DNA of 62,284 nucleotides, filler included, from 12 parts of 12 records of this genome joined end to end with filler, not necessarily neighbours in it; one strand, 5' to 3'. Shown: positions 5,969 through 54,784, counted from the first letter of the whole stretch. Numbers and translations are program-made. Notes: generated by a model not told the origin, from the sequence alone.

Positions 5969-6068
5969 NNNNNNNNNNNNNNNNNNNNNNNNNNNNNNNN
6001 NNNNNNNNNNNNTTAATTAATTAANNNNNNNNNNNNNNNNNNNNNNNNNNNNNNNNNNNNNNNNNNNN
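5969..6068. other. Artificial contig spacer 1 (N44-TTAATTAATTAA-N44)
   Basis: An identical 100-nt linker with six-frame stops occurs 11 times in the window. Confidence 0.99.
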
Positions 6069-8970
6069 TGCGGACCTGCTCGCAGACTGCTTGGCAGCCA
6101 GCCCCATCGTCGCGCTGTTCGAACTGCTTACCCACCTTGATCAGTGACTTCGAGTCTGTATTCACTTCAGTTTCGATGGCCTCAGCATCGAGATCGGTGA
6201 GTGGAGCGGTCAGCCACGTGTGGTGATGGTCGTGGAATTTTGAGGCGGTACTCCACATCTTGTTGAACGGCTCGAAGTCCTTGACAATCTTAGCAACGTT
6301 GCTGTAGTCGGTTTGTTCCAACCCGAAGATGGCTTCGTGCGTGTTGTAAGTCTTTGACCTTTGCTCCAAATCGTCGAGTCTCATCTTGTACTTTTTCGTG
6401 TCAGCAGCAATCTTCTCGAGCTGCGCAAGGTCTGTGTGCCCTCCGTAAGCTGCGACAACGTTGTTCAGCCCCACGATCTCCTGTTCGAACTGCTGCTGCT
6501 CTCCTACCATGATGTTCTGGAATTCCATCTCCGCGTCTACACAGCGCTCTACTCCCATTTCGATCTCCTTGTCCATCTTCATCGGCCACGTGTATGTAGT
6601 CCACTTGAGTTTGTCCATTTCGTCCGGCAATTCATACAAGAACTCGTCCAGCAGGTCGTAGTAGGCCGGAAGCTCGTTGATCAACGGCTGCAACGCCTCG
6701 ACATTTCCTTGGGTGTCCTTCATGTACTGCCGCAGCTCCTGCGCGTGCTCTGGGTTTTTCGCCGGCTTGCGCACCTGCGCACACATGTCGTTCATTTGCT
6801 CGACGATGTGGTTACACTTCTTTGCAGCACTTTCGACCACGAAATCCTGAAGGGCGGCCACGCACTCCTTGTGCTTGGTGGAAAGCTTCGCGCGAGCCGT
6901 TGCTGTGCTGATCTCGAACAGGCCAAGCGAGACTTTCTTGGGCAACTCTGCGATCACCTCGTCAGTGCGGCCCACGTGGTACATCAGTACGCTCTGGATC
7001 TGCTTCAGAGGCACATCCTCACCGCTCAACGCTTCGACGTGGCTCTGAACGGTAGACTTCACGAACTCCTCGTATTTGCTCCACTTCGACAGATACTCCT
7101 GTGCAATTGGAAGCCAGCTCCGCAGCGCGGCTTCGAATTCCCCGCGGCACTGCTGTGGGAGTTTCTCTCCAGCGCTCACGGTCTCAAGCATAGCTTTGTT
7201 GTTTTTCATCAGATGAGCCATGACCTGGTGCTCCACGCCTTCGATAGTGCCGGTCGCTATCAGAGCCTCGTCGTAAGCGTCGAGAGCAGCTTGAACGTAC
7301 TGCTCGGGGTCTAGGTTGTATGATAGGCCACCCTCTGGGCCGTCTTCGGCAACGACCTCCAGATAGAACAACGAGTGTTTCCGCGTGCTTTCTGAAGACA
7401 CGTCCTTAGCATCAGTGATGGTCACCGTGCCGGCTGCAGCCTTGGCAATAAACGTGTTGAACTTCAGGACGGTGTCTTCGATCATGAACCGCAGAGTATC
7501 CTCCATCATTTGCTTGATGGTGCGAATCAGACGCTTGAGCTTACTGAACTCGTAGATGTCGCGATTCTGCTCATTCAGGTTGAACCAGCCCTTGCCAACG
7601 TCACGCAGCGACGATAGGATAATGTTACGGATGGCAGGACTCCACTTGTCCTGCAGCTCTGTGGTAAGCGCCTGGGTCGCCTGCGACTGCATTTGCTTCC
7701 ACTCTGCGAGCTTAACGGTGCGGTTCACATTTGTCTTCAACGGGCTGCTCGCCAGCACCCAGTTGCATTCGTCGCGAATCTTAGCCATCATCGTAACCAC
7801 CTTGGGCTGCGTCAAGAATGAGGCAAACGTGAAGTCGGAAACCTTGTCAAGAAACCCCTCGTTCTCCACGCGCACGCACCCCTGCTGCGGTGCGGGCGGG
7901 CGGGCGGGTTGCTCGGACGGCGGGATGACTACGTGCTTGAACACTTCGTCGACGATGCCCTTCTCCGCACCTTCTTCCTCCGCAGCTTTTGCGGCGGCCA
8001 CGGCTGCATCGAGCACAAACTTGCTCTGCGCGCGCATGTAGTCGAGATTGACTTCATGCAGCAGCGGCGCGACATCTACTTCTTTGTCGCCCGGTGATTT
8101 CAAGTCCTTCGTGCTGAGAGCGCTGGTCAGCATTCGGCTGAGCTGGCCCTGGTCGAGGGGCGGCACGTCTTCCGTCGGCATCGAGTCGACGTACAGGTTA
8201 TACTGCAGCACCTCTTCCGCCTCGTGCCGACGTGCGAACGCATCGGCCACGCGGCGCGCGAAGTCGAACGGGTTCTCTGCCGCGAAGCACACTTCCAGGC
8301 GCGGCACCCACTTCTGAGCGCCGTCGACGATACGTGACACGAGGTAAGTGGTCGTGTCTGGATCGTAGTCCAGCATGAAGCCCTCCACCCACGAGCTGCC
8401 AGGAGCGTCCCCGTCGTTCGCCCACAGCACCTTGCTCGGCACGCCGCGCCCTTCCGCGGCGCCCATGGCTTTCCACTCCTCCGGGTTGCGGCAGTCGAAC
8501 TCGGTGTTGTCGAAGAGCTCCAGAGGCAGGTTGAGGGTCGAGCCGTAGGCCTCGCCGCCAGGGTCGCCGCCGTGCGAGAAGTCGATGCCCTCCTCGCGCA
8601 GCAGCGCGCCCAGGTTCTGCTCGCTGTAGAAGCGCTTCTCGCGCTCGAGCAGCACCTGGCGCGGCGGCTGGCCCGGCTCGGTCTTGTACGGCAGCTGCAG
8701 CTTGGGCTCCGCCGTGCGCGAGAGCTTCACGTCCAGCACCTGCTCCTGCGGGCTGGGCGCGCCCGGCACGCCGAGCGCTCGGATCTTGCTGTCCCAGCTC
8801 TCGCTCACGCGGCCCTTGTCGCTGTAGCGCGAGACGTCCGGCCCCTGCATCGCCTCCTGCCGCAGGCCGTCGCTCACATCGCCGAGGAACTCCGTGTAGA
8901 GCCCGCGCTGCTTGACCGGGGAGGACGGCGCGTCCGTCCCCATCCCACCCCCGCCCCCGCCGCGCCCCAT
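6069..8970 (-). CDS. DNAH1: Axonemal inner-arm dynein heavy chain, N-terminal tail (DNAH1-like), truncated at the contig end within the DHC_N2 region
   Basis: About 970 aa uninterrupted. DNAH1-type tail motifs: LPLELFDNTEFDCRNPEEW, WVPRLEVCFAAENPFDFARRV, YNLYVDSMP, SLRDVGKGWFNL, YNTHEAIFGLEQTDYS, FEPFNKMW. ATG at 8970 (alternative 8943). Confidence 0.88.
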
Positions 8971-9532
8971 CGCCGCCCTACAGGCCCTACCCGCTCGGCC
9001 CCACCCCCCGCAAGGGGGCCGCTGCCTCGCGCAAGCAAGCAAACAAGCAACACTCTTTCTGTTCTGTTCCACCTCAGTTACGCCGTTCCACCTCCTCCAC
9101 CTCCCCGTGCCCCCAAGCACACCCCGAAGCAAGGGAGGCTCCCCGGCCTTCCTCCGGCCTCCCCTGCTCACCCGAGTCGCCCTGCGGCCGGGCAAGCCTC
9201 CCCGGGGGGTAACGGGTAACGGGTAACGGCCCCGTAACGGCCCAGCGGCGACGGCAGGCCCTCAGCCCTCTCAGTTTCCAATGGTATCGGGGATTCGATA
9301 TATTATATATATTCTGCTGTTCAGTTCTCCAGGAAAATCGGTTTCTGCTGAATACACGGATCACGGTGGGTTGGATTCTTGTGGATTGTTGTGGAGGAGA
9401 TTGAACGCACTGATAAATGTGAGAGGCTCCGCGGACGACCACGAGATACTGGATGTTTTTCGCGTACCACTATTGATATTGGTATGCGGTTAAGGCACCA
9501 TCTGTGGATTGAATCCTGACCCAGCCGGTGAT

Positions 9533-9632
9533 NNNNNNNNNNNNNNNNNNNNNNNNNNNNNNNNNNNNNNNNNNNNTTAATTAATTAANNNNNNNNNNNN
9601 NNNNNNNNNNNNNNNNNNNNNNNNNNNNNNNN
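9533..9632. other. Artificial contig spacer 2
   Basis: N44-TTAATTAATTAA-N44. Confidence 0.99.
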
Positions 9633-10627
9633 CACAGCCCGGTTCGAGGCACTGGGAAGAGCCGTGATCCGCTGATCCCCGGCCGATCCAAAAACCGATG
9701 AACATCGAAGCACGGACCCATCCACTGCCCGCCCCCAATTCAGCCCCGGAATCCCACCTTTTTCCACAACTACCCGCCCCCAGAACGATGATTGAGCGAA
9801 CAAATATGAATATGACTGTGAATATCAATATGACTGTGAATGAGAAACAACAAACTCACTGAGAAATCGAGTCGCCGCGTGCTGACCACCTTGTGGACCC
9901 CTCCGACTCGCTGCATTAGAACGGGAATTGTCAACAAAATTGAGTCGATATCCAGTCGACATCGCGTGCTCTGACGTGTAAATGCCAATTCTGTAGAATA
10001 TCGCGAGTGAAATCTGTGGGAAATCTGTGGGATTTCCACTGATCTTTAGGCTAAAACCACGGTATAGGACGCTGAGTGTCCGCGAGCCACCGTTTTCTTC
10101 ACGGGAGAAGGTGGGAGAAGGGTAAGCGTGAGGGTGGGAGTGAGGGTGGGCGTGAGGGTGGGAGAGGAGGAGGCGTCGATTTTGGGGGTTGTGGAGGGAA
10201 AGAAACGGCGGCGGCGTCGTCACGCTGTATTGGTCCGTCCCATGCGCATGGGAGGATGGCGATGTCTTCTCTGGCGGTGACGGCGAGCCGCCTGACGGCT
10301 CCGTCGGTGGATCGCGGCGTGTCGTGACGGGTGTGCGTGGTTGGGAAGGTTGAGGGTGGGGGTGAGGGATCGGAAACCAAAACGAGAGGCGGAAAATAAG
10401 AGGCTGGAGCGCTGCGCCGGTCCGTCAGGCCGGGGCAGCGTCAGGACCTCGCCGCCCGATCCGCTCGCTGTCCCTGTCCCTGTCCCTGTCCCGCCCTAGC
10501 ACAAGCATCTCTCTCGCGCGCGCGCTCGCTGCCCTGAGTCGCAGTAGATCATGTCGGGCTTTGGCGGGAGCGTAAGTATGGCGTGCGGATGACGGGTTTC
10601 CGGTAGCGCTGCACCGCTGCGAGAGCG

Positions 10628-13600
10628 ATGCACGCGGCTGTGGCGACACAGGCTGCGCGGAGCCATCGGCGGTCTAGCATGGAGCGGAATTCGCAATCTA
10701 GCCTTCCAGGGACGGTGGAACAGGCCTCGGGTGGCTCGCTGTCCCTGCAGCCGAAGCCGCCGTCGGCACAGTCCGGCGCGCCAGGGCCGCGCTCGCGCAC
10801 CCTCGCTAAGGAGAGCGACGCGCTGCCCGGCGAGTTGGCGGACACGCCAACCGGCCAGGCTGGCGCGGACAAAGCGGAGGGTGCCGCAGAACCCACCAAG
10901 ACCGTAGGCGTGCTCGCTTCGTGGGGCCGGGCGAGAAAGAAGACCAAAGCTCACTCGCTTCTATCGAAGGGGCTGGAGTCCGCCAGGGAGATGAACCGCG
11001 TGATGGACTACGACAACAATCCTGTCGAGACGCACGGCCGCAGTTCCTGGGGGAAGTCGGACGAGAAGTGGGTCGTGCTGCCCGACTCGCGGTTCCGTAG
11101 GATATGGGACGTCTTTCAAGTCGTCTTTCTGTTTTATGTTGCCATCATGACGCCGCTTCGGATCGGCTTCAACATCGAGGTGGACGGGCCGGGGCCGGAC
11201 TCGACTGCCAGCGTGACTTGGTGTTTCGAGCTTGTGGTCGATCTGTACTTCATTACGGACATCTTCATCAACTTTCGTACGGCGTTCGAAGCGAGTGATC
11301 GCTTTGTTGAGCGGAGGGTGGATGCGATTAAGTGGCACTACATCAAGTCGTGGTTCTTCATCGACCTTGTCGCGTGTTTACCGATCAACTACGTGTGGCT
11401 GATCGTCAAAGCGTCGCAAGGCAGCACAGGCGGTGCCGACGGAAATGCTAATCTCAAGGTCATCAAGATTATACGCTTGCTCCGATTGGCGAAGCTGCTG
11501 CGACTGGCGCGGCTCAAGCGGATTTTGAAGGTGTATGAGGAAGAATTTCACGGCATTATCAGCTCGTGCAAGTTGCTGTCTCTGTTTCTGTTCATGGTTT
11601 ACGTGTCGCACGCCATTGCGTGCTTTTGGTACATGTTCGGCGCGGAGAATCAGACCAACAGTTGCTACGTACCCGAAACTGAGGGCCAGGCCTGCAGCGG
11701 AGTGGTCAAAGGCTGGGTAGATGCAGAGTTCGCTGACAGCTCCATCGGACAGACGGCGGAAATGGTGCCGCTGTCGCGGCGCTATCTGAAGTCCTTCTAC
11801 TGGGCCATCACAACGCTGTCAACAGTGGGCTATGGCGATATCACCCCCAATACGGACGCTGAAATGGGATATGCGTGTTTTGCAGAGCTGTTGGGTAGCA
11901 TGATTTTCGGGATCATGATCGGATCTTTGAGCACTATGCTCATGTCCGGTAAGGCTCTCGAAGAGAAGATTGATAACCAGCTGGCGGAGTTGCAGGAGTT
12001 CATGACCTCAAAGAATATTCCATCAAAGCTGCGCTCGAAAGTTCGTAGGTACATGGAGCTGTACTATGAAAAGAAGTCCAGCTACGACGAGAAGGCTGTC
12101 TTGAATTCGCTGCCCCCAGTGTTGGCACAAGAGTTGATGGAGGCCATGTACAAGGACATTGTCGACACTGTACCGCTCTTCGCTGGGCTTGACACCGAAA
12201 TCATTTCGAAGCTCTGCGTGACGCTGCGCCCGTATCAGGCGTTAGCGGATGAATATGTGTACAAGCAAGGGGAAATTGGCAAGGAGCTCTACATCATTTT
12301 GCATGGGAGAGTTGAGATGTCTCGAGATCTGCACCGGCTGGGAGTTCTCGGGGCGGGATCGTTCTTCGGGGACGAAGTTGTACGTCGAGATAAATCTATG
12401 GGGACTGGCGCTGAAACACGGCCAATAAAACGGGAGCGAAGCGCCAAGGCGATTGAAAATTGTGACCTCGCTTTCTTGACGAAACAAGACGTGGCCGTTG
12501 TCGCGCGGGACTACCCAACGATGGAGGTGCGACTGCGGAATCTGGCGAACCGAAGAGCCCAAAAGGATGCCATTTTGCTCAAGCGGATGGTGGCAGACAA
12601 GCAGGCCAAGGACGAGGCAGAGGCAAACGAGCGCTTCGACAAAATTTCCACCGTTTCTGCACTGTTTGCGAGGCCACTGGACGGTGTGATAGACCCACAC
12701 AGAATGGAGCAATATCAAGCTGCGCTAACGATTCAGAAGCATGTGAGAGGGCACCAAGCGCGTGCAGGAGGCGGTGGAATTATGCGCAAGAAGCTAATTA
12801 ATTCTGTGCTGACTGTCGACTCGATGAATGCGGGGCTGCCGGCTGTGTGTTGCAAACTGATGCCGGGTGATGGCAAACTAGTCGACCGCCAAGCAGGCGC
12901 TGTTAAGGTGCTTTCGGAGGAGGTAGGCGGAGGCTTGGATCACACGGTGATTGGTTGGTTCCCTGACGACGGCACTGAGCCGACCCTCGTAAAACTAGGG
13001 GACTTGAGAGCCATCACGTTTGGTTATGGCAGTCGAGCGTTCAAGGCGATGATCGAGTCGAGCGAAGCTGAAGGTCTCTCGCACAAGCTACAGCCAGAAT
13101 GGCGCTGCTTTTCGCTTTTGTACGATGGTGCTTTGACGAACAAAATGGCGTCGCTGAGTGACGAACATCGAGCATCTTCGCCTGTGGTCAACCCAATCAA
13201 TCTAGGCAATGTTGAGAACATAGTGGGACAGAGCGCTGATGATGTGGGGAGGCCAACTGAGTTTGCAATGTCCTTTGAGATTCGCCAGGAGGAAGAGGAC
13301 GCGATTGGCATGGATTCACTGTCGGTAGAGTGGCTCACTGCTCTCGACCGCATGGCAACGGAGCAGCTGACTGGAAGTGGTCACCAACTCTACCGGGGCA
13401 TTGATGCGCTAAAGCCTAAGTCGGCAGCAGACAAGGCATCCGAGATCGATGCCGCGTTCAATGCCGTAGATACAAATGGTGACGGCATGTTAGATGAGTC
13501 AGAGCTTCGGCTGCTTCTCAGCTCACTTGACGAGCCAGCTACCGATGAGGCGATCGCATCCTTGATAAATGCTATATCGGGTGAGAATGGAAACATAGGG

Positions 13601-14129
13601 AAACACGAGTTCCAGCAGTGGATGGCTGCGAGATCGGTGCGCAAGGCCACAGAACAAGCAACCATTGCTGTTCAATTCGTAGATATCACTTCTGACCATC
13701 CGCTCCTCCAATATTGGTGAGTCAGTCTCTCATTCTTCGCTTGGCTGGCTATCTTTGCAGGCGGTAGATCCAGCAAACGTACGCAGCTACCTGCTACTGT
13801 GTCGCCAGCGTTGGAAGATACAAGGGTTTGCAACAAAGCGCAGACAGGAAGAAGCGGAGCAACTACGTTTGTTAGAACAGGAAGACGCCATGAACGGCGG
13901 TGGTGCTTCACCAGGCAGAGGATCATACGGTGGTTGGAGCCCCCGCTCTGGCGGCGCGGGGGGTGAGCAGGTGAACGCAGACGTCATGCAGCTTCTAGAG
14001 TCGCGTGAAAAGCGCATTAATGATGCCATCGGGCAGCTGAATGACGCGGTCACTAAGCTCCAGGCAAGCCAAGCATCAACGAACGTGGAGATTCTGCAGC
14101 GGCTCAGGGACCTCGACAGCAAACTTTAA
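10628..14129 (+). CDS. Six-TM K+-selective channel of the cyclic-nucleotide-binding-domain (EAG/HCN/CNG-like) family with C-terminal IQ, PH-like, EF-hand and coiled-coil regions; probable exons 10628-13636, 13761-14129
   Basis: S4 segment IKIIRLLRLAKLLRLARLKR, pore TTLSTVGYGDITP, C-linker plus cNMP domain (VYKQGEIGKELYIILHG...FFGDE...RSAKA), IQ motif TIQKHVRGHQAR, EF-hand DTNGDGMLDESE. A phase-0 intron GTGCGC..TTTGCAG joins the last ORF. Confidence 0.92.
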
Positions 14130-14688: not shown

Positions 14689-14788
14689 NNNNNNNNNNNN
14701 NNNNNNNNNNNNNNNNNNNNNNNNNNNNNNNNTTAATTAATTAANNNNNNNNNNNNNNNNNNNNNNNNNNNNNNNNNNNNNNNNNNNN
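14689..14788. other. Artificial contig spacer 3
   Basis: N44-TTAATTAATTAA-N44. Confidence 0.99.
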
Positions 14789-15081
14789 TTCGTAATAATA
14801 ACTGTAATTAGTACTATAATCACTGAAATTAGTACTAGTACTATAATAGTATGTTGATCAGTTCACATCGGATTGATGGCATCGAAGGTCCGCGGGCGGC
14901 TCCGCGCGCCACACACGCGCGCGCGCGACCGCGCGTGGGCGACGGACGGATCGGACTGCGACTGGCGCGCGGGCGCGCGTGACCCCGCGGCCGCGGCGGA
15001 CGCGCCTCGACGCGCGCGCGTCCTGCGCGTGAGTGGAGCTGGGGTACTCGGGGTGTCTTTCTGTGTTCCCAGAGTGGCGAG

Positions 15082-18000
15082 ATGCGCGTCAGCTTCGGGT
15101 GCTGGGTGGTGGTGCGGCTTGGGATGGAGCTCTTGCACCTACCTGATGCTGTGTGGGCGCAGCAGCCCACTGATGGCCTGGCGCAGCAGCAGTGCCTCTC
15201 CTGCTTGGATCCGCATCACGACTGCCTCTCCACTGTGTGCACCGTACCTAGTCCGCTCAATCTCTAAGTCGCGCTCGTGTGCACTGGACGTCAGTGTTGT
15301 CTTGGACAAACTGTTGTGACTGAGTCAAGGTTGTGATCTTGTTGGCTCGACGGCCTGGAGCAGGGTGGCGTCACAGTAGTCGACGACAAGCTGTACATCG
15401 GTGGGCTTTTCGCGTCAACACAGGGTGACCTCGATGGGGGGGTCGAGAACCTCGAGCACTTTAAGCTGGCCGTTGAAATGATCAACGACCACAACGATGG
15501 GTAGCCAGCTCTGCCCCTCCCTGCGCCTTCCCAGGCGTCAGATCGCCCGCGCCCACCAGCCTCGCGCCACGTGGCTCTCGTCTTTTTCACACACGCGCTG
15601 CATGTCCTGGCGTGCGCATGGGGCAGGTGGTACGATGATCTACTCCCGAACACTGTGGTTGTGGCTTCAGATGCAGACTCAGCGTGCAGTGCCCTGCCCA
15701 AACCTGCACCGCACCGCTCGCAGGGTGCCCCGGGGGCACTATGGGAGCTTCTAATGCACCACAAATCCACGTACGGCCACAATATGGATGCCGTGGTGGG
15801 ACCCGCTTGCTCGGGCGCCTCCAACGCTGCGGCGTACTTTGCCGACGAGTTTCAGGTCCCGATGGTTTCCTACAGCGCTACTTCCAAGTCCCTGAGTGGA
15901 CGCAGCCCGTTCTACTTCCGGCTGAGCGTGCCAGACAGCACCAAGAGCGTTCGTATTTTAGACTTTCTACAGCTTGCGGGGTGGAAGTGCGTAGCTTCCT
16001 GCTTGTTTTGCGAGATTCCTTGAGCGCCCCTTTTTTTGACTCCTACTGTGACAGCAGGCCTCCCTTGGCTGAACATCAAGCGTTGCATGACTGCAGATAC
16101 GTAGGAATTATTAGTACTGACACCGAGTACGGCAAAGATATGGCAACGAGTATCAAGGAGGGCTGGCTCAACATGAATCCCGAGCACAGGCAAGAATATT
16201 ACCAAATCGTTGACGTAGATGCCGACGAAACAAGGGGAGAGAAGCCACTTGAGACATCTATAGCGGAAGCGATGAACATTCTTGACCAAGGGACCTCGCA
16301 GGCGGTCACACGCGTTGTGGTCGTCACAGGACACACGGACCAAGTTGCGGAAATGCTTGTAGCCATCGCCAAAGAAAACCACGGCGGCACGGTAGACAAA
16401 ACTGTCTATGTCTCGACAACCGATTCCGTCCCGATCCCTGCTGCTGGCTGGCCTGAGAACATGAGGTCTGGGATTTTCTGCATCATTGTTGCTGCGCCAG
16501 ACCTCTCGAGGCAGCCGGAGTCGTACGATTATCTGCAGGTGTGGAAGAATCGTGCCCGACGCTATCTAGGGTATCAGCCGCACGACAGTGACGGCAACCG
16601 CGACACTATTCACACGTACAGCTGGAACACGCACGATGCTGTGATTACGATTGCATCAGCATACCATCAAATCAAGGAACAAGGAGTGAGTGGTACGTTA
16701 CGAGACTGGATTGAGCAAACCAGCCCATCATTCTACGGTGGACCGACGTGGAGTAGTCAAGGTAAAGTTGGAGTCTCTGGCCCAGTCGAGATGGATAGAG
16801 AATCACACGATCGCCGGAACGCTAACTTTGCGCTCATGAACCTGCAGAACGGTACGCTGCTATCATACGCGAAACACAGCCTCCTTCCAAACCAACACTG
16901 TTCCGCAAACACCGAAGTCTGAGTCTATATGCACTCGGACGGAGCAGGCCAATGGGTGCAAGTTGCAGATCTGAACACAGGGCAGATGGAAGACGCAGGT
17001 TTTCCTGTGATGGTCCTTCCAGGCGGGGCAACGCTAGAATCTTTTGTGGGGCACGAGAGTCCACCACTGGCTGGCTGGGTATTGCCCATCATCATCATTC
17101 TCTGTGTTCTGATGGTGAGCGGCTTGGTATTCACCTGGTGGTATCGCCGGAGGAACAAGCGAAGGGCAGAAAAGAGAAGACAGGATGCACTAGCAAAAGC
17201 TGCGTATGAAAAGGAGCACGCAGTTGAGATCGCTGAGAAGCAGCACGAAGAGGCGCTGAAGGCCCAGAAGAGAGCATTGGAGCTCAAGAAAAAAGATCTG
17301 AAATATCCTGATACCTGGAAGATGATTCGGAAGAGTCCGGCACTCCCTCCGATGCCAGACGAGGGGAACAACTCGCTCATTGATGTCGAACCGCACACAG
17401 AAGAATATTGGAATGTCTACGATCTTCTTACTAAGAAGCCGGACGCTTCTTGCGCGACAGCAGGCTCCGATCGGAATGGTCTTCACGATGCTTGGATTAC
17501 TAAGCTACAACGTATTCAGAACACCTCACTCTTCGTCTACAACGACTTTCAAAGATCTCGGCTGGCGGGACAAGCCAACATCAAAAAAGACCAAGTCAAA
17601 TCAGTCCAAGGTTGGCACGGCACCGGCAACTTCGACGCCGTCAACATCTACAATGACCAACAAGATGGTGCGCTGCAACATCGTATTTCGGATAGTCTGA
17701 GACGCAGTCTGTCTGACCCCATGTGCGTTGCCCAGGTTTCATGATGCAGTTTGCTTCGGCTGGGCAATGGGGGCGTGGCCTGTACTTTGCAGAGGAGGCG
17801 GCATACAGCGACTTGTATGCATCCAAGGCCGCGCAAATGCCGGACGGTGGGAGGTCTAAGGGTATGCAGCCTGACGAGTCTGAGTTTATGCTTGCGAACA
17901 TTTTGCTCGGCAAAGAGATTGAAATGGACCGCGACACAAGTCGAGGTCCGACAACAAGACTAGACTAGAGGACACCCCTGCTAGTTTGCGTTTGTGTTTG

Positions 18001-19180
18001 TGCTGAAAATCTGATCGTGTGCCTGTTGTGTTCTGCAGAAATGGAACGAACCTGTCGCAAGCTCACTGCACCACCAGCTATCAAAGCCTGCCAACGAACA
18101 TCGCGGACGCGCGATGGTGTTGATGCATGCACTGCGCCACCGAGTGATCAAAACGAAGGTGACAAGTACAATACGGTCCGTGGTTATACGCAGACTGATC
18201 TCAACACCAGAAGTGGGTGGATCAAAAACCCTGATTGCCCACGTTCACGAGTCTGGAGTAAGCACAGCACACTTTGTGAATTTCTCCAGAAATAAGCTGC
18301 TATATCTCGTCCGAAGTCTAGACTTGACACAGCTATTGATATAGCGCAGCTGTATGTCCATGCACGTGTGACCATTGTCTGCCGGACCATACCACATGTT
18401 TCTGTAAGGTGACCACTGCTGTCATGTTTGAACAGTCGTCTATGAAAACGGCCGAGCGTGTAAGCTGTTGTGATACAGAACCCTCTACCCGTTTTCTGGC
18501 CACGTTCGCTTATCTCTCTGTCTTTGACACAGTTCCGCCGCAACTGAATGTTCTGCTTTTTGTTGGCATCAGATCCGGAGTACCTGATTCGATACTATCG
18601 TGGGGAGTACGATCAAGGCCGTGTGCCTTACAAAACTCGGGCACAAGCCCTAGGTTCAGCGGAGGGTCGCCTGCGTGCCCGTGCCGTACCAGCACTGGGC
18701 TCGGCGCTACGGCAACGATCGTCTGCCGATGCTGCACCAATGAAAAACTATTCCCCGCCGCCGCCTCTACCCAATATGCCGTCGAACCGAGGCCCAAAGT
18801 ATTGCCATGTGGCTCCCGATGGCCAGCGGCAACCTTTCTCAGACGCTGACAACGCACTCATTAACGGTGCTCTCCAACGGTAAAAAACCGCACGATGTTA
18901 TTAGCCTACCGTCTTGCGCATTGCTCTGAATGCGATACTGCGAATTCATTACCACCTTGCTTGCACTGACTGGCCGGCTCTCATGGCACTCTGCAGTCAT
19001 GAGGCCGCGGTCCAATTGAATGACGTACGAACGCCGAATGGGCAGGTCTTGCACTTTCAGGTCCGCCTTGGATCCAGCGCCACCTCACGCAAGATGCCAG
19101 TGCCACCAGAATCGAAGATGATTCAAGTCAACCTCGCGAACGACAACACGCGCGTCGTTGAGGTTTTCGGTCGGCCGTGA
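15082..19180 (+). CDS. Single-pass membrane receptor: Venus-flytrap/ANF-receptor ligand-binding domain - TM - coiled coil - PARP catalytic (ART) domain - WWE-like domain; exons 15082-15243, 15364-15500, 15627-15986, 16097-16851, 16948-17667, 17736-17945, 18039-18257, 18436-18459, 18573-18879, 18997-19180
   Basis: All 9 introns are GT..AG and phase-compatible. VFT motifs: LYIGGLF, FKLAVEMIN, AVVGPACSGAS, VPMVSYSATSKSLS, YFRLSVPDS, YSWNTHDAV. TM: WVLPIIIILCVLMVSGLVFTWWY followed by RRRNKRR. PARP motifs: KLQRIQN, GWHGT, GQWGRGLYFA, MLANILLG, YNTVRG, VWIVYENGRAYPEYLIRY. WWE-like: QPFSDADNALINGALQR...MIQVNLANDNTRVV. Confidence 0.88.
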
Positions 19181-19848
19181 TGGCACGCTGACCACATGTC
19201 TAGAGACAGCCCCATACAACGAAGTGTCCAAGTATTCATTTCCATATCATTGTACTGCACATGTTCGGTACTGTTATGAATACGGGCCTGCAAGCAAAAA
19301 TTCAGCTCGCTGAAGCCTTCGATCGGGTATCCAAGGACGAAACCGGAACCGCAGCCTGTGAGGTAAACAATAAGTCAATGAACAAGGTCTTCAAAAATGT
19401 CAACCTAGACGAGGACTAGCTCTCTCTTGTCTCTACAACCTTACACCTCCTACCTTCAACCACCAGGCACCCCCAGCGCCACACTACACAAACAGCCATA
19501 GTTGCCTCGATGGCGATAAGACCAAGAAAACATCCATTGAGTGGATTGGCTGATAATGGGAACGCTGACCTCCATAACTTGCGCACTGCGGTGTCGTAGG
19601 GAGGGTATCCCTTAGTGAGTACGCCTGCGGAGAAAAGCTGATGAGTTACCATAAATGCAGATACACTTGACTTGACACCAAGCTTGCAGGCAAGCATCAC
19701 GGCTTTGCGTGCAGTGAGGCTGCTGCAGCACACTAAGAGCAATACTCTACAGGAGAGATAGTGAAACCAGTTACGTGCGGAACGGAATCAAGCCTAGCGC
19801 GTTAATCAATCTGCGTGGTATTCAATCTCACAGAGTAGTGCTACCATA

Positions 19849-22800
19849 TCAAAGTCTTTGCGTAGAGACTGAATAACTTTCGCCCGCCTTTGTTTGGAAG
19901 TTCCAGCGTGGCCCTCCTTGATCTCGCGTCACTGCTACTGCCACACCACCCCGCGTTGCCACTACCACGGTGTCCGTCGCTTGCTGTGAGGGCGGCAGCT
20001 CCAGTGAGCAACGCCCACCAACCTCACTCTCGACCGTGATCGGTCCACCCAGCCGCTGCGCAGCAGCATTCCAGACCGCCGACACCACAAAAGCCCCCTT
20101 GCCGCGCAAGCGAACGAAGCTCAAATCAGAGAAGCTTAGATTCCTCAATGGGAACAACGCCAGGTAATGCTCCCCTGAGATCCCTGGCACCGTGACTGAT
20201 TGCAGCATCAGATCCGCTATCACCTGCAGCGCACCAGCAACCTCCATGCCACCACCGCCCTGATAGACGATCATGTTCGTGAGAGCGTCCTTTTCAATTA
20301 TGCTACGAAACTCCGGGAGCCACAGCTCAAGTGGCATGCGCACTCTCGTAGCCTGCGAAAAGATAGAGCAGAACGAGTTCCCTGTCTCGCCAACACAACC
20401 GCCGCTATTTTCAATGTGCCCTATGAATCAGGGGCGATTTGCAATTGTTTTCATATTATTTTGCGTATATATTTTTTGTTTCTCTCACCCTGCCGCCACT
20501 CCGCAGAGAGTTGCAGCGTGTCACGAACGGTCTGTTGCAAGCTCTCAGGGGAAGCTAGCCCAATCACCTCGCCGGGCCAGACAGGCCACCCTGTTAAATG
20601 TACATGACCATATCGCAATGACAATGTAATGTGTGCGCAGAGCAAATCATCGACAGGGCGGAGACGGTCAGGTGATCAAGGGGCAGGCAGCTAGCATGCA
20701 AGCACGAACACGAAGGTGGTCAGTGTGATTGTGGTTGATGCACGCACCCATCACATCCATCATCCCATCCCCAGCAACCTGCGCCGGGCACGACCTGCCG
20801 CAGGCACGTGATCCACATGTCACCCCACATGCTGCTGGGGCAGTGGTATTGGTGATATTGGTGTAGTTCCCTGCCAAGACGATGATCTGCCTTCGTGGCT
20901 CGTACGGCAAGGCGCTTGTCCCATTCGTCTCGATGGTCGGGAGTGGGTCGAGTCTGAGTGCAATCTCTGCCCATTGTGGATCGACGGCTTCGCCCAGATG
21001 TTTGGCCATCGATGGTAGAGCACTGGCGACGCGTCTTGCGAAACCGTTGCTGAAAGCAGGCAGGCAGGCGGGCAGGCATTGATTGTCGCACGGTACAGAT
21101 CTACATTTACTAGATGAGTCACAATCATGAGGTGGAATAACTGCACGCACCTGAAGACGGTATTGTTTTGGTAGCATGAATCGAAGACACCAGCCAGGGT
21201 TCCATCGGAAGTGCATTCGTTTGCCTGATCATTCTCATTGACCCAAGAACTGTCGGCTCGCCGTCGCATCCAGCTCTGGTAAAATAAAAGGGTGTCACGG
21301 CAGAAAGGAAATGCCACTGTGCGTAAGAAGGACGTATTGCGGCTGTATTCCCATTCCTGAATCATGTTCAGAGAAGCAAATAGCCCGTTGCTGTGATCGG
21401 CCATGGAAGCCCAAGGTTCACCAGCGAGTGTTGCATCGAAGCCGAATGGTGCAATATGTCCTGGAAAGTGCAGCCCTGGACACGGGCCACTGCTGCCTTT
21501 TTTGCACAGAGGCGCATTGCCACATCGCACAGCACCATCGGGACAACATCCACCGCCGCCGCGGCCGCTGCAGGTGTAAAATGCTGCCTGCGCCTGCGCT
21601 TTTGGTAGAAATGCCAGCAGCGGAGCGTACTGCGGTTGCGCCTGCGATACGCGGTTGTTCGCGTACAAGCCCCAATGATTCGCCTCATGATTCTGTGGGA
21701 GATTGAGCATACAGTCGTAGTGTCAGGTTCAGATTTAGATTCAAGTTCAGATACCGAAGTGGGCACAACAGCTCATCAAAGGGTGGTGGACACGGAACGT
21801 AGATGCGAGTGACTGACGTAATCTAGAGTAAAGTCTCCTCCCCATGCAGGAGAGTCATTGTGCACCCAGGGGCCCCACAGCCCCGCAGCAACCCGTCCCA
21901 CACGTGAGGCCGCGCCGATAAGATAGGAGTGGGCGTAGTAGAACCGCTCGAGCGTTGCGTCACCTGGAATCGCAACGGACGTGGCTTTCCAATAATCGAA
22001 CCACCAAGCACTGTTGGCGCGCACGATGGCGGCCGACGAGACGCTTGCTGCTCGTGCGATACTGGCATTCACCGGATCCACGGTGCAGGTGGCGGTTGGA
22101 CTGCCAGGGCGGTCATGGCCGGGGCAGAGGTCAAGGTTGCTGAGGATCGAGGTTGCGATCTGGAGCCCACCCGCTCCGACCTGGTATGTACAAGCTGCAG
22201 CTGAAGTGCTGACCAGCTCGCATTGCAATGGCTTTGCCCGACCTTGCTGCTGCGCATGCTGCTGCACGACGGTACTCGCCATGGCGATGGCGATAGGTTT
22301 AGTGGACGAAGCACCGAGTGGCTGCCGTTTCGACCAGAAGACTGAACCGTCACGCCCAGCGCCAATACCAGCGCCGACAGACCCGTCGAGACAGCCTGGT
22401 ACCCTCGGGTCTGCACTCGGTGTGCACGGCTGCTTGAGATTGATGTCGAGTGGCAAAGCCCAGCTTGTGACTGTCACCGCCATTGGAGGCTCCGCAGTCA
22501 CAGTGGTGAGGGCGACGTTCTCGTCAGGTGCCAGAATCACATGCAGCCGCACAGATGCGCCAGTGGTGGTCGAGGTCAGGGCCGCCCGCACCTCCGCGGT
22601 GGCAATATGCATCTCGGCTGAGAAGCTCGCTCCTACCAGCGCAGAGTGATTGCTGGGCGAAACCGTGAGGCCGCCGAGCCCGAGCCGCCGAGGGAAGGTG
22701 GCGTCTCTGTCAAACTGGATGCAGCCAGGCTTGTTCAAGCTGCTGTTGCTCTGAAATCTGCAGTGGTTGTACTCGCGCAGACCCCACATCTGGTTCGCGC

Positions 22801-23566
22801 CGAAGTTGAGCGTCAGTGCCCCAGCTGCAGTGGCGGATGGGAGGATGGGCGACGGTGGTGGTGCCGAATACGAGTGGACTGTCATGCACTGGCCCGTGAG
22901 GCCGGGGCACTGCCACGTCGGCACCGCGGGCTGTGGGCACTGGGGTTTAAGCAGGCCGGCGCCAGTCGAGCCGACGGGCACGTAAGTGTATTGCTCGCAC
23001 TTCGGACCACATGCACCAAGCTCAACCCAGCCCGGTTGATTGGGCTTGGTCGTCGTAGAGTGCGAGTCGGCGTTCAGGCAGCGACCAGCATTGGTGCTAG
23101 TCGGTGCCGCGGCCAGAATGAGCGTGCTGGCGTTGTAGACCCACATCGTGTCACCGTCACCGCAGGTACGCATGGTGAGCGGCCGTAGGTCAAACGTCGA
23201 GAGGCACTGGCCGACTGCTGCGCCACGGTTGGTGATCGCGGACACGATGCCCCCTCCAGCGGTGCCGAGAGCCTTGCCAGCCCAGAGCTGCCGCGCATCT
23301 GATGCGTTGCACGGCGCGTGGCTCACTGCGAACTGGCCGCCCGGTGGCGGCTGTGGCTGTGGCTTGCCAGGGAGGCGGCCACCAACAGAGACGCCGAGGT
23401 CGCCGTTCCCGAGGAGTGGTGCCCCCGAGAGCCGGCCCGCTCCTATGCCACTGGGCGGAGAGGTCCAGTTCGCGACGTACCTCGTGGCGATCTGCGGCCC
23501 CGTGGCGATGGCTTGGCTGCTGCAGCTGCAGCCAAGCAGTCCGCAGCCAAGTAGCACTACTAGCAT
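19849..23566 (-). CDS. Secreted GH95-like (alpha-L-fucosidase/galactosidase-like) glycoside hydrolase with an inserted ricin-B (CBM13-like) module; multi-exon
   Basis: Signal peptide MLVVLLGCGLLGCSCSSQA. GH95-type motifs: PLLGNGDLG, GLWGPW..DSPAWGGDFTLDY(N), GMEVAGALQVIADLMLQS, SFVRLRGKGAFVVSAVW. QxW/Cys ricin-like repeats (CNASDARQLW, GQCLS, AGRCLNA). Internal exon boundaries were only partly resolved. Confidence 0.75.
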
Positions 23567-23981
23567 TTCAGCGCCCCACGCGATCCGGTGAGCATCCCCC
23601 CCCTCAGCAGCAGCACCACGCAGCAGCACTACCCAGTAGTAGCACTATCCAGTAGCACCACCCAGCAGCAGCAGCCCCGCCGGCGGCGGGCATGCAGTGC
23701 AGAGGGCCGCGCGCGCGCCGGCGGAGATCTCTAGCTAGAGCTAGAATATACAAGCGCCGGAGTACATTTTCATATCCGCCCGTTGTGAGATCGGGGTCTG
23801 AAGGGGAAATTCCCGGCATTTTGTCAAGGACCCGAGGTGGGAGGGTCCATTCTGTCACACCCGGCAGGGAAGGATTCAATCCACACGCGGTGCCAGATCC
23901 AGTCTAACATGATGAGAGGGCAAACCCATGCTTGCAACCTTTAGCAAGTATCAAGTATGGTAAGCTAGACGCTTGAAATCC

Positions 23982-24198: not shown

Positions 24199-27100
24199 CT
24201 ACGAGCGCAGGATCGCCTCCGCGTCCAGCCCACCACCCAGCAGCTTCGTCAGCTCCGCAGGTGGCCCCTTCATCTCCTTCAGCACCCCCTTCAGCCGCCT
24301 AATACCCTCCTCCCCGCGCCCATCGTTGTCGAGGACGTGCTTCTTGAGGTCGCGCAGCGTGAACATTTCGAATAGCCGCAGGCCTGTGCGGTGCGAGATC
24401 TCGATTGACCGTTCAAATGCTGCTTCCGCCTCCTCTTGCTTCCCATGTGTCGCCAACATGCGGCCTCTCAGAGCGTGCCCTCGCGCATGAGTCGTCGGCC
24501 GCACGTCGGTATCAGGGTCGTTGTCGTCAACACGCATGGCCTTGGCAACGTAAAGCAGCGCATCGTCAGGGCGCTCCAGCTTCTCGCAGACCTCGGCAGC
24601 CATCAGCAGAAGGTTGTGGACAAAAAGTGATTTCGGTTGAGATCGTCGGGAGTTCTTGGTGACGCCAGTGACGTACGAATCCAGCACGTCCGGGCTGGGC
24701 AGTGCCGCAACGACGTCAGCCGGCGGGACTTCGCGCCAAGAAGTACAGAGAACGTAGCTAAGTTTGCAGGTCCAGGCCACTTCCTCGGCGGTTGTCATGG
24801 TGTTCCCACCATCATCCACCTTAGTCCCACGCTCTCGGACACGGTGGCTTGTTACTGCGAGCGCGTCTACTCGCACATCTGCCGTCGCCCACGTGATGCC
24901 GATTTCCGTCATGAGTTTCGCTGCGTCTTCTTGCCGACCAAGAATCCAGAGTACGTACCCCATGTGCCTGGCCACTCGGTACTCGAGCCGTTCACGAACG
25001 ATAACCTCATGAGGCCCACTCAGTTCCGACATCCAGTGCTGACATTGAGCGAGGCTGAAATCGAAGCAGGTGTTTGTGGTTGAAATGTCGCCACGCAGGC
25101 CCCACAGAAACGGCGTGGGGAGCGACGGCGCTACCCCTTCGTCCGTATATGCGTCCAGCTCGTGGTCGTAGCTGCACCAAGCGCGAGCGAGATTCAGGCC
25201 ATCCAATACTTTCCAGTCCCACTCAGGCAGGCGAAGCCACTCCATCATAAATCCTACACTCGCCGCACCATTTATGTCGAGTGCCGCCAGCAGCCTGGAC
25301 TCGCCACCAGCAGCTCTGTCCTCCAGCTCCTTGAATGACCGCGTCATCTCCATCAAATGAAATTTATCAAAATCTCCCTCTCTTATTAAGCGCTGGCGCT
25401 CCTCGGTCTCCCGGAGCTTAGCAGCATCCAACGGGTGTGCGCGTCCAGCCTCGGTGGTCTCCAGCAGGTGGAGGGCTCTCTCAGCGAATCTCTTGACGTC
25501 GTCGGCGGTATAGAACGTGAAGACTTGCAAGAACTCGTCGTCGCTCATATGAAATAAAATACCTCTGACATGACGGTGTGCAACGCACATGTGCACAGCC
25601 CAGTGCTCGAATGCCACGACCTCGAGCATCGCTGGGCGCTGGCCGTCCAGCGCCAGCCGCCTGAGCGCTGGCATTGCTAGCGCAAACGTGTCGTTGTGCT
25701 TGCCGGACCAGACTTCCGCCCGTCCCACTTCGCGAATCTTATCGACCCTCCACGCTTCACATAGGCAGCAGGTGAGCCAGTCGTTGTTCGCGTCTGCGGC
25801 CGCGGTCTTCAACATCGTGAGCAGCCGCGGAGTGCCGACCACCCGAATGGCACTGGCAATGAGATCGTCTCTTGCCCCGTTGTGCTCAGAAGGATGGTGC
25901 ATCAACCACTGCTCCACACAGGTCGGCAGCTGCTCCGTCTCCGAGTCGAGCCCGGCACGGATATGGTACTCGATGTTGTTCTTGACGTACAGAGAGCACT
26001 CATCGCCCCTCAGCGGCTGCCAGATTCGCAGTCCAACCATCGCAGTGTCGGCACAGACAGGCCGGTGCGCTGCAAATGCGTCTACCACCTTCCGCTGCAA
26101 CTGCTGCAGCTCTTCCGGTGAGAACTGTGCGATTGAATACTCCCTAACGATATCGTGCCTGCAAATCGGACAGCACAAACGCGTGAGTGGACCGTAGATC
26201 TACAATGGGAGTGCAGATCAGGCGGACGGCTTGCCAGCAGCAGGGCAGGGGCTCACAGCGATGGTCGCTCCCACGAGCCGAGAACGATCGATCGGTTGAT
26301 CAGGATTTGGAGCCATTTTCGAAGCTGGAGCTGCGGCACGAGTTCTGCTTCGCCAGTCACCGCCGACAAGATGATCTGAAATGCCGATAGAGGCACGTAC
26401 GTATCCTCGGCGACGAGTGCGAAGACAGAAAACACCTTGCGACAGTCTTCCCGATCGCGCAGTGGGACAGCCTGCAGGCTTGCAGCCAAGATGCGGTACT
26501 CGAGCGTAGTCTCGTCACCGCCTGCACTGGATTGCATCTCCTGTTGCAGCAGCCTCGGGATACCCGTCCAGTCTTCGCCACTCACGCCCAGGTCGCGAAG
26601 CATTGAACCCGCAATATCCAACGCCAACGGAAGACGTCCGCATAGCTTGACCACCTCCTGTGCCTCGGTAGGCACCGGTTTGAGGTGTGCCAAGCCAGCA
26701 GCGGCCATGAGGAGCTTCACCGACTCCTCTTCGGAGGGCACACCCAGCTCCACCTGCTCCGTCCCACCCAGGCCGCGAATGCGCGTCGTCACGAGCGTTC
26801 TGGACGCAGTGGAAGTATCGATGAAGTTCAGCGCCGCCTCATGGCTCGGCTCCCACACGTCGTCAATGATCACGAGGACTGTGCGCCCCCGAAGCTGCGT
26901 GGTAATGAGCTCCTTCGCCTGCTCGGGGCTGGTCTCTGATGAGAGCTCTTCTCCGGAGGCCTGCAGGTAGATCAGTGCTCTCATGCGGTCCATTGCCGGC
27001 GTCTGTCCCAGAGTGACCCCTGCAATCGAGCAGGACAACACAAACGCGTGAGTAGACCGACACGATCCGGAGTCCGGGGCTTGCTGGCAACAAGACTGGG

Positions 27101-54500: not shown

Positions 54501-54784
54501 TGTTTGCGTGAGCAACCCGCTGCAACATCGCTGCTTCCCGCGTCACCTCGCGAGAACTCACGCCGCCCCGGAAGAACTTGATGGCAACGTTTCCCAGGCG
54601 TGTGTCGGTGCCTTGCACCACAACTCCATTTTGGCCGCCGCCGAGATCCCGATCTCCAACGATCCAGCGACCCGGTTGCCATCCGTCAACGACAGACTGA
54701 AGAGCGAGTTTTCGCTCTGGTCCGGGCGGGAGGGGCCAGTCATCCGGGTCTGGCGCAGGGGCAGGGGCAGGGGCAGGGGCAGCA
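51544..54784 (-). CDS. Ser/Thr protein kinase - PARP catalytic domain - armadillo-repeat fusion protein (5'-truncated, frame open to the contig edge)
   Basis: Kinase motifs: LGGGQNGVV, VAIK, HRDLKPDN, DFS (for DFG), GTPHFMSPE, DLWSLG. PARP motifs: IRRVQNCSLW, NEKELFHYAP, GFDPRLGGGEYGAGAYFA, LLWAKVALG, YNSVTG, QYISFHPDQAYPE. ARM-like repeats (VQxxGCxAL, AMRxH). Confidence 0.88.
53440..53590. repeat. Coding low-complexity (EPEAEA)n repeat inside the PARP domain
   Basis: Translation AEAEAEPEAAPEAGPEGQPDIEPEAVAEPEAEAEAEPEAEVEPEAEAED. Confidence 0.85.

Follow-up and report, generated by a model that had tools for sequence, protein, structure and literature searches.

A predicted "receptor PARP" family of diatoms and other marine protists joins a Venus-flytrap ectodomain, one membrane helix and a PARP catalytic domain

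The 62,284-nucleotide (nt) stretch of DNA analyzed here, which we call the window, holds between positions 15082 and 19180 an intact gene of ten exons that encodes a type-I-like protein crossing the membrane once. In the predicted protein, a Venus-flytrap ectodomain of the ANF-receptor/type-1 periplasmic-binding kind is joined through one transmembrane helix to a PARP catalytic domain, which is followed by a C-terminal module. As judged from its sequence, the protein belongs to a "receptor PARP" family of diatoms and other marine protists, an uncharacterized variant of the clade-3-like PARPs that has gone unrecognized in public databases. An earlier reading of the window, made without database searches, had proposed this architecture. 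The arrangement of flytrap, single helix and PARP stands and recurs in many organisms, but it is not unique to the window, and the finding is less singular than first thought because many copies are already present in public collections.

The window consists of twelve pieces cut by eleven identical spacers (44 N, the twelve bases TTAATTAATTAA, 44 N). It is thus a string of contigs, probably of one binned or single-cell genome, and genes on separate pieces are not shown to adjoin. The receptor-PARP gene lies entirely inside the piece 14789-23981, with its first ATG 293 nt from the piece edge, and the locus is present in marine or seawater metagenomes (19 rows from 13 studies among public runs). 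Joining the plus-strand stop-to-stop frames over 15082-19180 gave ten exons that keep one frame between the ATG at 15082 and the stop codon at 19178-19180 (Table 1). The nine introns are 68 to 178 nt long, each starts with GT and ends with CAG, and all exons are free of stop codons. The ten exons spliced in phase, as claimed from the sequence alone, are borne out, but the claimed length of about 1,090 amino acids is not: the spliced product has 1,033 amino acids, or 1,025 with the second acceptor of a tandem pair at the exon 4/5 junction. The acceptor at 16947/16948 is favored over that at 16923/16924, and we prefer the shorter form because the relative P0003 reads through the junction in the 16947-acceptor form.

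The junctions are supported by comparison with the family. A profile made from 48 proteins carrying ANF_receptor, PARP and WWE domains (47 of the 50 full-architecture relatives described below, three of 522 to 595 amino acids being omitted, plus P0076) matched the spliced product at 427 bits over profile positions 19 to 764, across the junctions from exon 2 to exon 9. The Pfam ANF_receptor match reaches profile position 119 where exon 3 ends and continues at position 122 where exon 4 begins. At the exon 5/6 junction, four relatives that have no intron after the Gln-Asp-Gly of exon 5 (P0008, P0014, P0019 and P0043) continue exactly like the spliced window sequence, and an intron at this position is common to the metagenome loci L001, L002 and L007. 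The micro-exon 8 is needed to restore the nearly invariant VYENGRA strand of the family; L002 has introns at both of the same places around its equivalent. At the exon 9/10 junction, L007 has no intron, reads across and ends in the same way. Intron positions in the family vary between lineages, and loci L004 and L005 carry an intron inside the His-Gly-Thr motif region, at a position that is unused in the window.

It is conceivable that the fusion is an artifact of the gene model, the flytrap-transmembrane and PARP parts being separate genes, or that the locus is a decaying pseudogene. RNA offers this idea some ground and counts against our model: no spliced RNA was found, and the contigs from two metatranscriptome runs (X15 and X18) showed no joints on the locus, being collinear with the DNA across introns 2, 3, 4, 7 and 8. 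These intron-containing contigs may represent DNA carry-over or unspliced RNA. Against the artifact, the transmembrane helix and the WHGT motif of the PARP domain share one open exon, exon 5, in a gene whose exons and introns are uniformly stop-free and canonical, and the same fusion is encoded by relatives that needed no splicing by us. Two MMETSP transcripts marked complete pass the Pfam cut-offs for all three domains, as does an uninterrupted open reading frame (ORF) of 865 codons on metagenome contig L006; hence a single message carries the fusion, which is also seen where no gene modeling is involved. Contigs of other runs revealed eight variant positions, of which five lie in exons 3 to 9 and are all synonymous (5/5, one of them at 18844 in exon 9), one is intronic and two lie in exon 10. 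The latter two change residues and come from one divergent contig. We regard separate genes or a pseudogene as very improbable and close to refuted.

The ectodomain is the part most readily recognized. Against the Pfam ANF_receptor profile (PF01094, cut-off 25.4 bits), exon 3 scored 54.8 bits (E 1e-14, profile positions 50-119) and exon 4 scored 31.1 bits (E 1.6e-7, positions 122-351), so that the ANF-receptor/type-1 periplasmic-binding domain proposed earlier is confirmed by both exons. The best solved relatives of exon 3 alone were plant GLR3.4 (E 1.3e-6) and mGluR8, and the family profile matched mGluR7 among solved structures at E 4.9e-28. Relatives, too, have a Cys-rich stretch ahead of the flytrap domain.

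The product has one strong hydrophobic segment, with a Kyte-Doolittle mean over 19 residues of 2.83 versus 1.33 for the next best internal segment. Its position, 17076-17144, and the basic stretch behind it match the single helix with a stop-transfer segment that had been placed at about 17068-17145. A hydrophobic segment occurs at the same place, between the flytrap and PARP halves, in 47 of 48 full-architecture relatives. The charged, helix-type linker that follows is conserved and ends at a YP.TW motif, whose Pro (P128) and Trp (W131) are invariant in relatives (alignment A2). A two-copy prediction of the helix and linker (residues 46-135 of the exon 5 product), made without controls and bearing neither for nor against a coiled-coil dimer, scored 0.01 against a mark of 0.32.

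For the catalytic domain, the spliced product matched positions 2 to 215 of a 215-position PARP-core profile built from relatives, at 235.8 bits, and this whole-domain match bears out the PARP assignment. The Pfam PARP profile (PF00644) was less favorable to it: exon 6 alone reached 20.5 bits, short of the 26.7 cut-off, and none of the other pieces matched. Since the domain is split across five exons, that scan covered separate pieces only; relatives pass the same cut-off, with 64.9, 59.0, 52.1 and 54.7 bits. Compared with solved structures, the family profile found PARP15 at E 3.9e-31, PARP12 at 5e-28, PARP14 at 1e-26 and tankyrase-2 at 3e-19. The His and Tyr of the catalytic triad are kept, and the third position is Val, which aligns with the Leu of the matching PARP15 strand. 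Polymerases have Glu at this third site, inactive PARPs typically lack the His, and active mono-ADP-ribosyltransferases, PARP10, PARP12, PARP14 and PARP15 among them, show the pattern His-Tyr-hydrophobic. The residues of the window domain, His, Tyr and Val, predict mono- rather than poly-ADP-ribosylation, and the domain should be a mono-ADP-ribosyltransferase.

The same residues can be read differently. With the architecture unchanged, the PARP domain could serve noncatalytically for binding or as a scaffold, a role reported for PARP13 and plant RCD1, and the protein would then be a receptor or adhesion protein that merely binds NAD+ or ADP-ribose-like ligands. The missing catalytic Glu, which weighs against an active enzyme, is a family trait (Val in 57, Ile in 14 and a gap in 1 of 72 relatives), and the window-type domain has extra loops compared with the diatom type. 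Plant SRO proteins, which have a PARP fold, also appear inactive (Perina et al. 2014). Set against this, the NAD+-site His and Tyr are invariant in all 72 relatives, and the closest solved relatives, PARP15, PARP12 and PARP14, share the His-Tyr-hydrophobic pattern of active enzymes given above. A purely binding role for the domain thus appears unlikely to us, and a transferase remains the reading that we carry forward.

A structural view comes from P0014, the closest full-length relative, whose AlphaFold model (mean predicted local distance difference test score, pLDDT, 64.6, with low values over the ectodomain and high ones over the cytosolic part) was compared against approximately 48,000 solved chains. 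Residues 69-528, at modest pLDDT, resembled the amino-terminal domain of GluK3 (Z 24.0, root-mean-square deviation 4.0, 343 aligned residues) and also matched LivK (Z 23.5), GLR3.4, GABA-B, mGlu and NPR-C (Z 18.1). In the model, residues 582-646 form one continuous helix, comprising the membrane segment and the linker, that leads straight into the PARP domain. Residues 649-924 matched PARP15 (Z 19.7, root-mean-square deviation 2.8, 190 aligned residues) and PARP10 (Z 18.0).

The C-terminal module is the part of the architecture that is hardest to name. It comprises the last 89 residues (18797-18879 plus 18997-19177) and shares 30 of 80 aligned residues with locus L007, including the same last three residues before the stop codon; this conservation implies that it is coding and under constraint. 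Several results speak against its being a WWE domain. The Pfam WWE profile (PF02825) did not match either exon piece of the intron-split module, even at E up to 1. A WWE profile from the family gave the spliced module 4.8 bits, a score reached by 1 of 500 shuffles, and the L007 module -0.1 bits, reached by 142 of 500. Across such family profiles the window module scored 3.1 to 6.1 bits, barely over shuffles, and with an early one made from 10 sequences it scored 3.1 bits, with 2 of 1,000 shuffles higher. The W, W and E of the WWE signature are replaced, in the hhalign register, by Tyr, a nonaromatic residue and Asn.

Profile-to-profile comparison and structure point the other way. When the window and L007 modules were aligned by hhalign with 51 WWE domains of the family, the probability was 52% (score 24.9 over 61 collinear columns), and none of 200 column shuffles reached that score (maximum, 17.4); a second alignment gave 45%. 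An attempt with a three-sequence query in which P0014 was misaligned had given 1.7%; this value and that of the 10-sequence profile are superseded by the window-plus-L007 query but illustrate how faint the resemblance is. In the hhalign register, a Gln-x-Asn and one Arg near the module end are kept. The corresponding module of P0014, which Pfam also misses, folds with a pLDDT of 88.3 from an input alignment made of diatom WWE domains, and the first 21 matches listed for this model (ranks 1 to 24) are all WWE entries, drawn from TRIP12 (E 8.7e-4, template-modeling score 0.76), HUWE1, PARP11, ZAP, DTX1, RNF146, Deltex and PARP14. The WWE-like module of the sequence-only reading therefore survives in part: relatives carry a true WWE after the PARP domain, but the window module lacks W, W and E and reaches only 45 to 52% by hhalign. 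A WWE-like identity for it is plausible but unproven.

The family was delineated from two queries. An exhaustive HMMER search, whose query ran from exon 4 through the 72-nt intron into exon 5 with an X at the intron's one stop codon, returned 85 proteins at E up to 0.001, many of them ORF fragments of intron-bearing genes. One such fragment was 98% identical to the exon 5 region, and its cluster includes a member listed in NCBI and EukProt. Among ten long relatives scanned with Pfam, four pass the cut-offs for ANF_receptor, PARP and WWE alike; P0014 has a related binding-protein domain, PARP and a WW domain; and P0043 has ANF and WW, with PARP at 25.1 bits, just below cut-off. One of the four with all three domains, P0052, is a UniRef entry of the diatom Helicotheca tamesis that was automatically named "Poly [ADP-ribose] polymerase." Its cytosolic half, used as a query, retrieved 96 proteins, whose domains were counted from precomputed Pfam annotation: ANF, PARP and WWE were found in 50, ANF and PARP in 14, ANF only (mostly truncated proteins) in 19, PARP and WWE without ANF in 11, and PARP with UBA-like and WW domains in 1; the remaining protein had no domain. 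The named sources of these proteins are all diatoms (Fragilaria crotonensis, five; Seminavis robusta, two; Conticribra weissflogii, one), and a Pseudo-nitzschia model and MMETSP transcriptomes are further diatom sources.

A quick tree of the PARP core was built from 77 of 80 rows, after three with fewer than 170 matched positions had been dropped. In it, the window protein clustered with P0008, P0019, P0014, P0043 and P0199 (Shimodaira-Hasegawa-like approximate likelihood-ratio support, 100), apart from the diatom proteins. Its best identity was 61%, to P0008. Among the relatives P0117/P0114, P0080 and P0199, the unit of transmembrane helix and PARP also stands behind CUB and EGF domains, in a cluster with one member that comes from a single-cell genome of Picozoa, as well as behind the C-terminal domain of a 5'-nucleotidase; a soluble clade-mate joins PARP to UBA-like and WW domains. 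Several other searches returned little. A word-index protein search with exon 5 found no longer proteins, a first metagenome scan with exon 5 and a search of viral contigs gave no match, and the ESM Atlas yielded no usable match to exon 10 or exon 5. Solved structures searched with short pieces or a single relative returned only ZAP, at E 0.32.

The placement of the protein in the cell depends on its N terminus, and here the evidence is less kind to our interpretation. The predicted leader has a 19-residue Kyte-Doolittle hydropathy of only 1.26 and is broken by Arg and Glu. Directly upstream of the ATG, a GTGAGT at 15029 is followed by a pyrimidine-rich CAG at 15070-15072, and across the two an upstream frame with its own ATG would join in phase. 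The interval 15029-15072 could be a 44-nt intron preceded by an extra 5' exon, altering the N terminus. Given the weak signal peptide and a piece edge 293 nt upstream, the N terminus, which may be incomplete, and the topology are unproven.

A weak leader would suit a protein of an internal membrane (endoplasmic reticulum, Golgi or vacuole) that has a lumenal flytrap and, as part of a stress or nutrient-storage response, modifies proteins close to the membrane. PARP16, located in the endoplasmic reticulum, would be the precedent. It is the membrane-spanning PARP of humans (Perina et al. 2014). The relationships of the ectodomain favor the cell surface instead, since its solved relatives are cell-surface receptors and periplasmic binding proteins and sister proteins of the window protein have CUB, EGF or 5'-nucleotidase ectodomains. 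These three are typical extracellular modules. We consider an internal location improbable. In the plasma-membrane arrangement that we favor, the basic stretch after the helix would keep the flytrap outside and the PARP domain on the cytosolic side, with access to NAD+.

The protein is probably a membrane-spanning flytrap-helix-PARP receptor that would act through ligand-controlled mono-ADP-ribosylation, whose C-terminal module would bind an ADP-ribose-type ligand; by analogy with known receptors, such a mechanism is plausible. As a first event, the flytrap would close or rearrange on a small ligand, possibly an amino acid. Much as in class C receptors and receptor guanylyl cyclases, this movement would be passed through the rigid helix to the PARP domain and change what the enzyme does. 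It would then modify itself or neighboring proteins with single ADP-ribose units, and the C-terminal module might bind an ADP-ribose-type ligand in cis or in trans. That the reaction would be ligand triggered, dimerization dependent and read by the WWE-like module is something we only infer. More tentatively, and with somewhat less than even confidence, we suggest that these proteins form a new class of enzyme-linked cell-surface "receptor PARPs," in which an exchangeable outside module on a common cassette of transmembrane helix and PARP would control mono-ADP-ribosylation on the cytosolic face of the plasma membrane. A WWE or WW domain, the putative reader, usually follows the cassette.

Several known systems share parts of this plan. 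The catalytic domain of the window family is closest to those of the human clade-3 mono-ADP-ribosylating PARPs (PARP15, PARP14, PARP12, PARP11 and PARP7), in which His and Tyr are likewise kept with a hydrophobic residue in place of Glu, and a coupling of PARP with WWE is common to both. The human proteins, however, are soluble, whereas the window protein would span the membrane and carry a flytrap ectodomain; in addition, their WWE precedes the catalytic domain, while the WWE or WWE-like module of the window family follows it. Natriuretic-peptide receptor guanylyl cyclases have the same overall plan of ANF-receptor ectodomain, one transmembrane helix, helical linker and cytosolic enzyme, and NPR-C resembles the modeled P0014 ectodomain (Z 18.1). 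Kinase-homology and guanylyl cyclase domains were not found in Pfam scans of the window pieces and relatives, and the window protein would at most work like a receptor guanylyl cyclase; it is not a member of that family. The best solved relatives of the ectodomain are class C G-protein-coupled receptors and the amino-terminal domains of glutamate receptors (mGluR, GABA-B, GluK and plant GLR3.4), from which the window protein differs in having one transmembrane helix, rather than seven or a channel, and an enzyme as its effector. The ARTC ecto-ADP-ribosyltransferases, of the R-S-E clan, perform ADP-ribosylation at the cell surface with an extracellular catalytic domain, whereas the window domain, which should lie in the cytosol, belongs to the H-Y-E clan. 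The searches run on the window protein and its relatives returned no ARTC match. A PARP catalytic domain on one membrane helix is also found in PARP16, which has a C-terminal anchor and no ligand-binding ectodomain, flytrap or WWE, and in a sponge protein, in which an N-terminal transmembrane segment leads directly to PARP, without flytrap or WWE (Perina et al. 2014).

Table 1. Coordinates of the receptor-PARP gene, of the parts of its product and of the window's spacers
Feature	Position	Strand	Remark
Exon 1: first ATG, weakly hydrophobic N terminus, short Cys-rich stretch	15082..15243	+	3' junction uncertain
Exon 2: flytrap (ANF receptor) start	15364..15500	+	family profile aligned from position 19
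Exon 3: flytrap lobe 1	15627..15986	+	Pfam ANF_receptor
Exon 4: remainder of flytrap domain	16097..16851	+	Pfam ANF_receptor
Exon 5: ectodomain end, transmembrane helix, linker helix, N-terminal part of PARP with WHGT	16948..17667	+	alternative start 16924
Transmembrane helix, sole strong hydrophobic segment	17076..17144	+	Kyte-Doolittle 19-residue mean 2.83
Basic stretch after the helix	17145..17180	+	8 Arg/Lys in 12 residues
Charged juxtamembrane linker, helix-type, conserved	17145..17303	+	about 53 residues, ending at YP.TW
PARP catalytic core (exons 5 to 9)	17304..18604	+	
Catalytic-triad His (WHGT)	17616..17618	+	His in 72/72 aligned relatives
Exon 6, bears triad Tyr	17736..17945	+	
Catalytic-triad Tyr	17783..17785	+	Tyr in 72/72 aligned relatives
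Exon 7, bears Val at third triad position	18039..18257	+	
Third triad position, Val	18251..18253	+	relatives: see text
Exon 8 (VYENGRA)	18436..18459	+	24-nt micro-exon
Exon 9: PARP core end, low-complexity linker, start of C-terminal module	18573..18879	+	module from 18797
Exon 10: remaining C-terminal WWE-like module, stop codon	18997..19180	+	
Spacers	5969-6068, 9533-9632, 14689-14788		plus eight more

Other pieces of the window hold further genes, and those at piece ends may be cut. On the minus strand at 51547-54783, one long open frame has a protein kinase domain (Pfam Pkinase, E 4.5e-36) and a divergent PARP-like domain, followed by ARM-like repeats. Its PARP-like part matched PARP12 among solved structures at E 3.4e-6, with the His and Tyr motifs kept; the Pfam PARP profile gave no match on this frame at E up to 1e-4. 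From these matches the frame is a predicted kinase-PARP fusion. Adjacent minus-strand open frames at 24199-27806 contain NB-ARC (E 4.8e-18) and a TPR repeat and resemble a STAND/NLR-type protein; the open frame 28112-29755, upstream of them, had no Pfam match. A single long open frame on the plus strand at 10607-13717 codes for an ion channel that has a cyclic-nucleotide-binding domain and, at its C terminus, EF hands. An axonemal dynein heavy chain, interrupted by a spacer, is represented by its N-terminal part on the minus strand at 6070-9261. The proteins most similar to it come from metagenomes, at 73 to 88% identity, and named proteins reach 31% or less. The presence of an axonemal dynein indicates that the source organism is flagellated.

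To our knowledge, enzyme-linked receptors signal through kinases, phosphatases or cyclases, and no receptor is yet known to drive ADP-ribosylation directly. Among the papers returned by full-text literature searches, none describes the flytrap-transmembrane-PARP architecture. Two surveys of PARP evolution do not mention it in the parts available to us (Citarelli et al. 2010; Perina et al. 2014), and the words "ANF" and "periplasmic" are absent from the available text of the latter. The former states that diatoms appear to lack PARPs (Citarelli et al. 2010), and the latter that Thalassiosira oceanica has at least two (Perina et al. 2014). The family described here is abundant in diatoms, in contrast with the early survey's report of none (Citarelli et al. 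2010). As for the earlier statement that no characterized single-pass receptor with a PARP effector is known, it holds within the literature searched, in which no description was found, but dozens of proteins with this architecture are already present in public collections.

Diatoms are major marine primary producers. The idea of a receptor PARP is testable, as cultured diatoms have orthologues (Fragilaria crotonensis, Seminavis robusta and Helicotheca tamesis) and the compact cytosolic part suits NAD+ assays. If it is true, ADP-ribosylation would join the outputs that a cell-surface sensor drives directly, and diatoms and other marine protists could use it to sense dissolved amino acids, other small molecules or pathogen cues.

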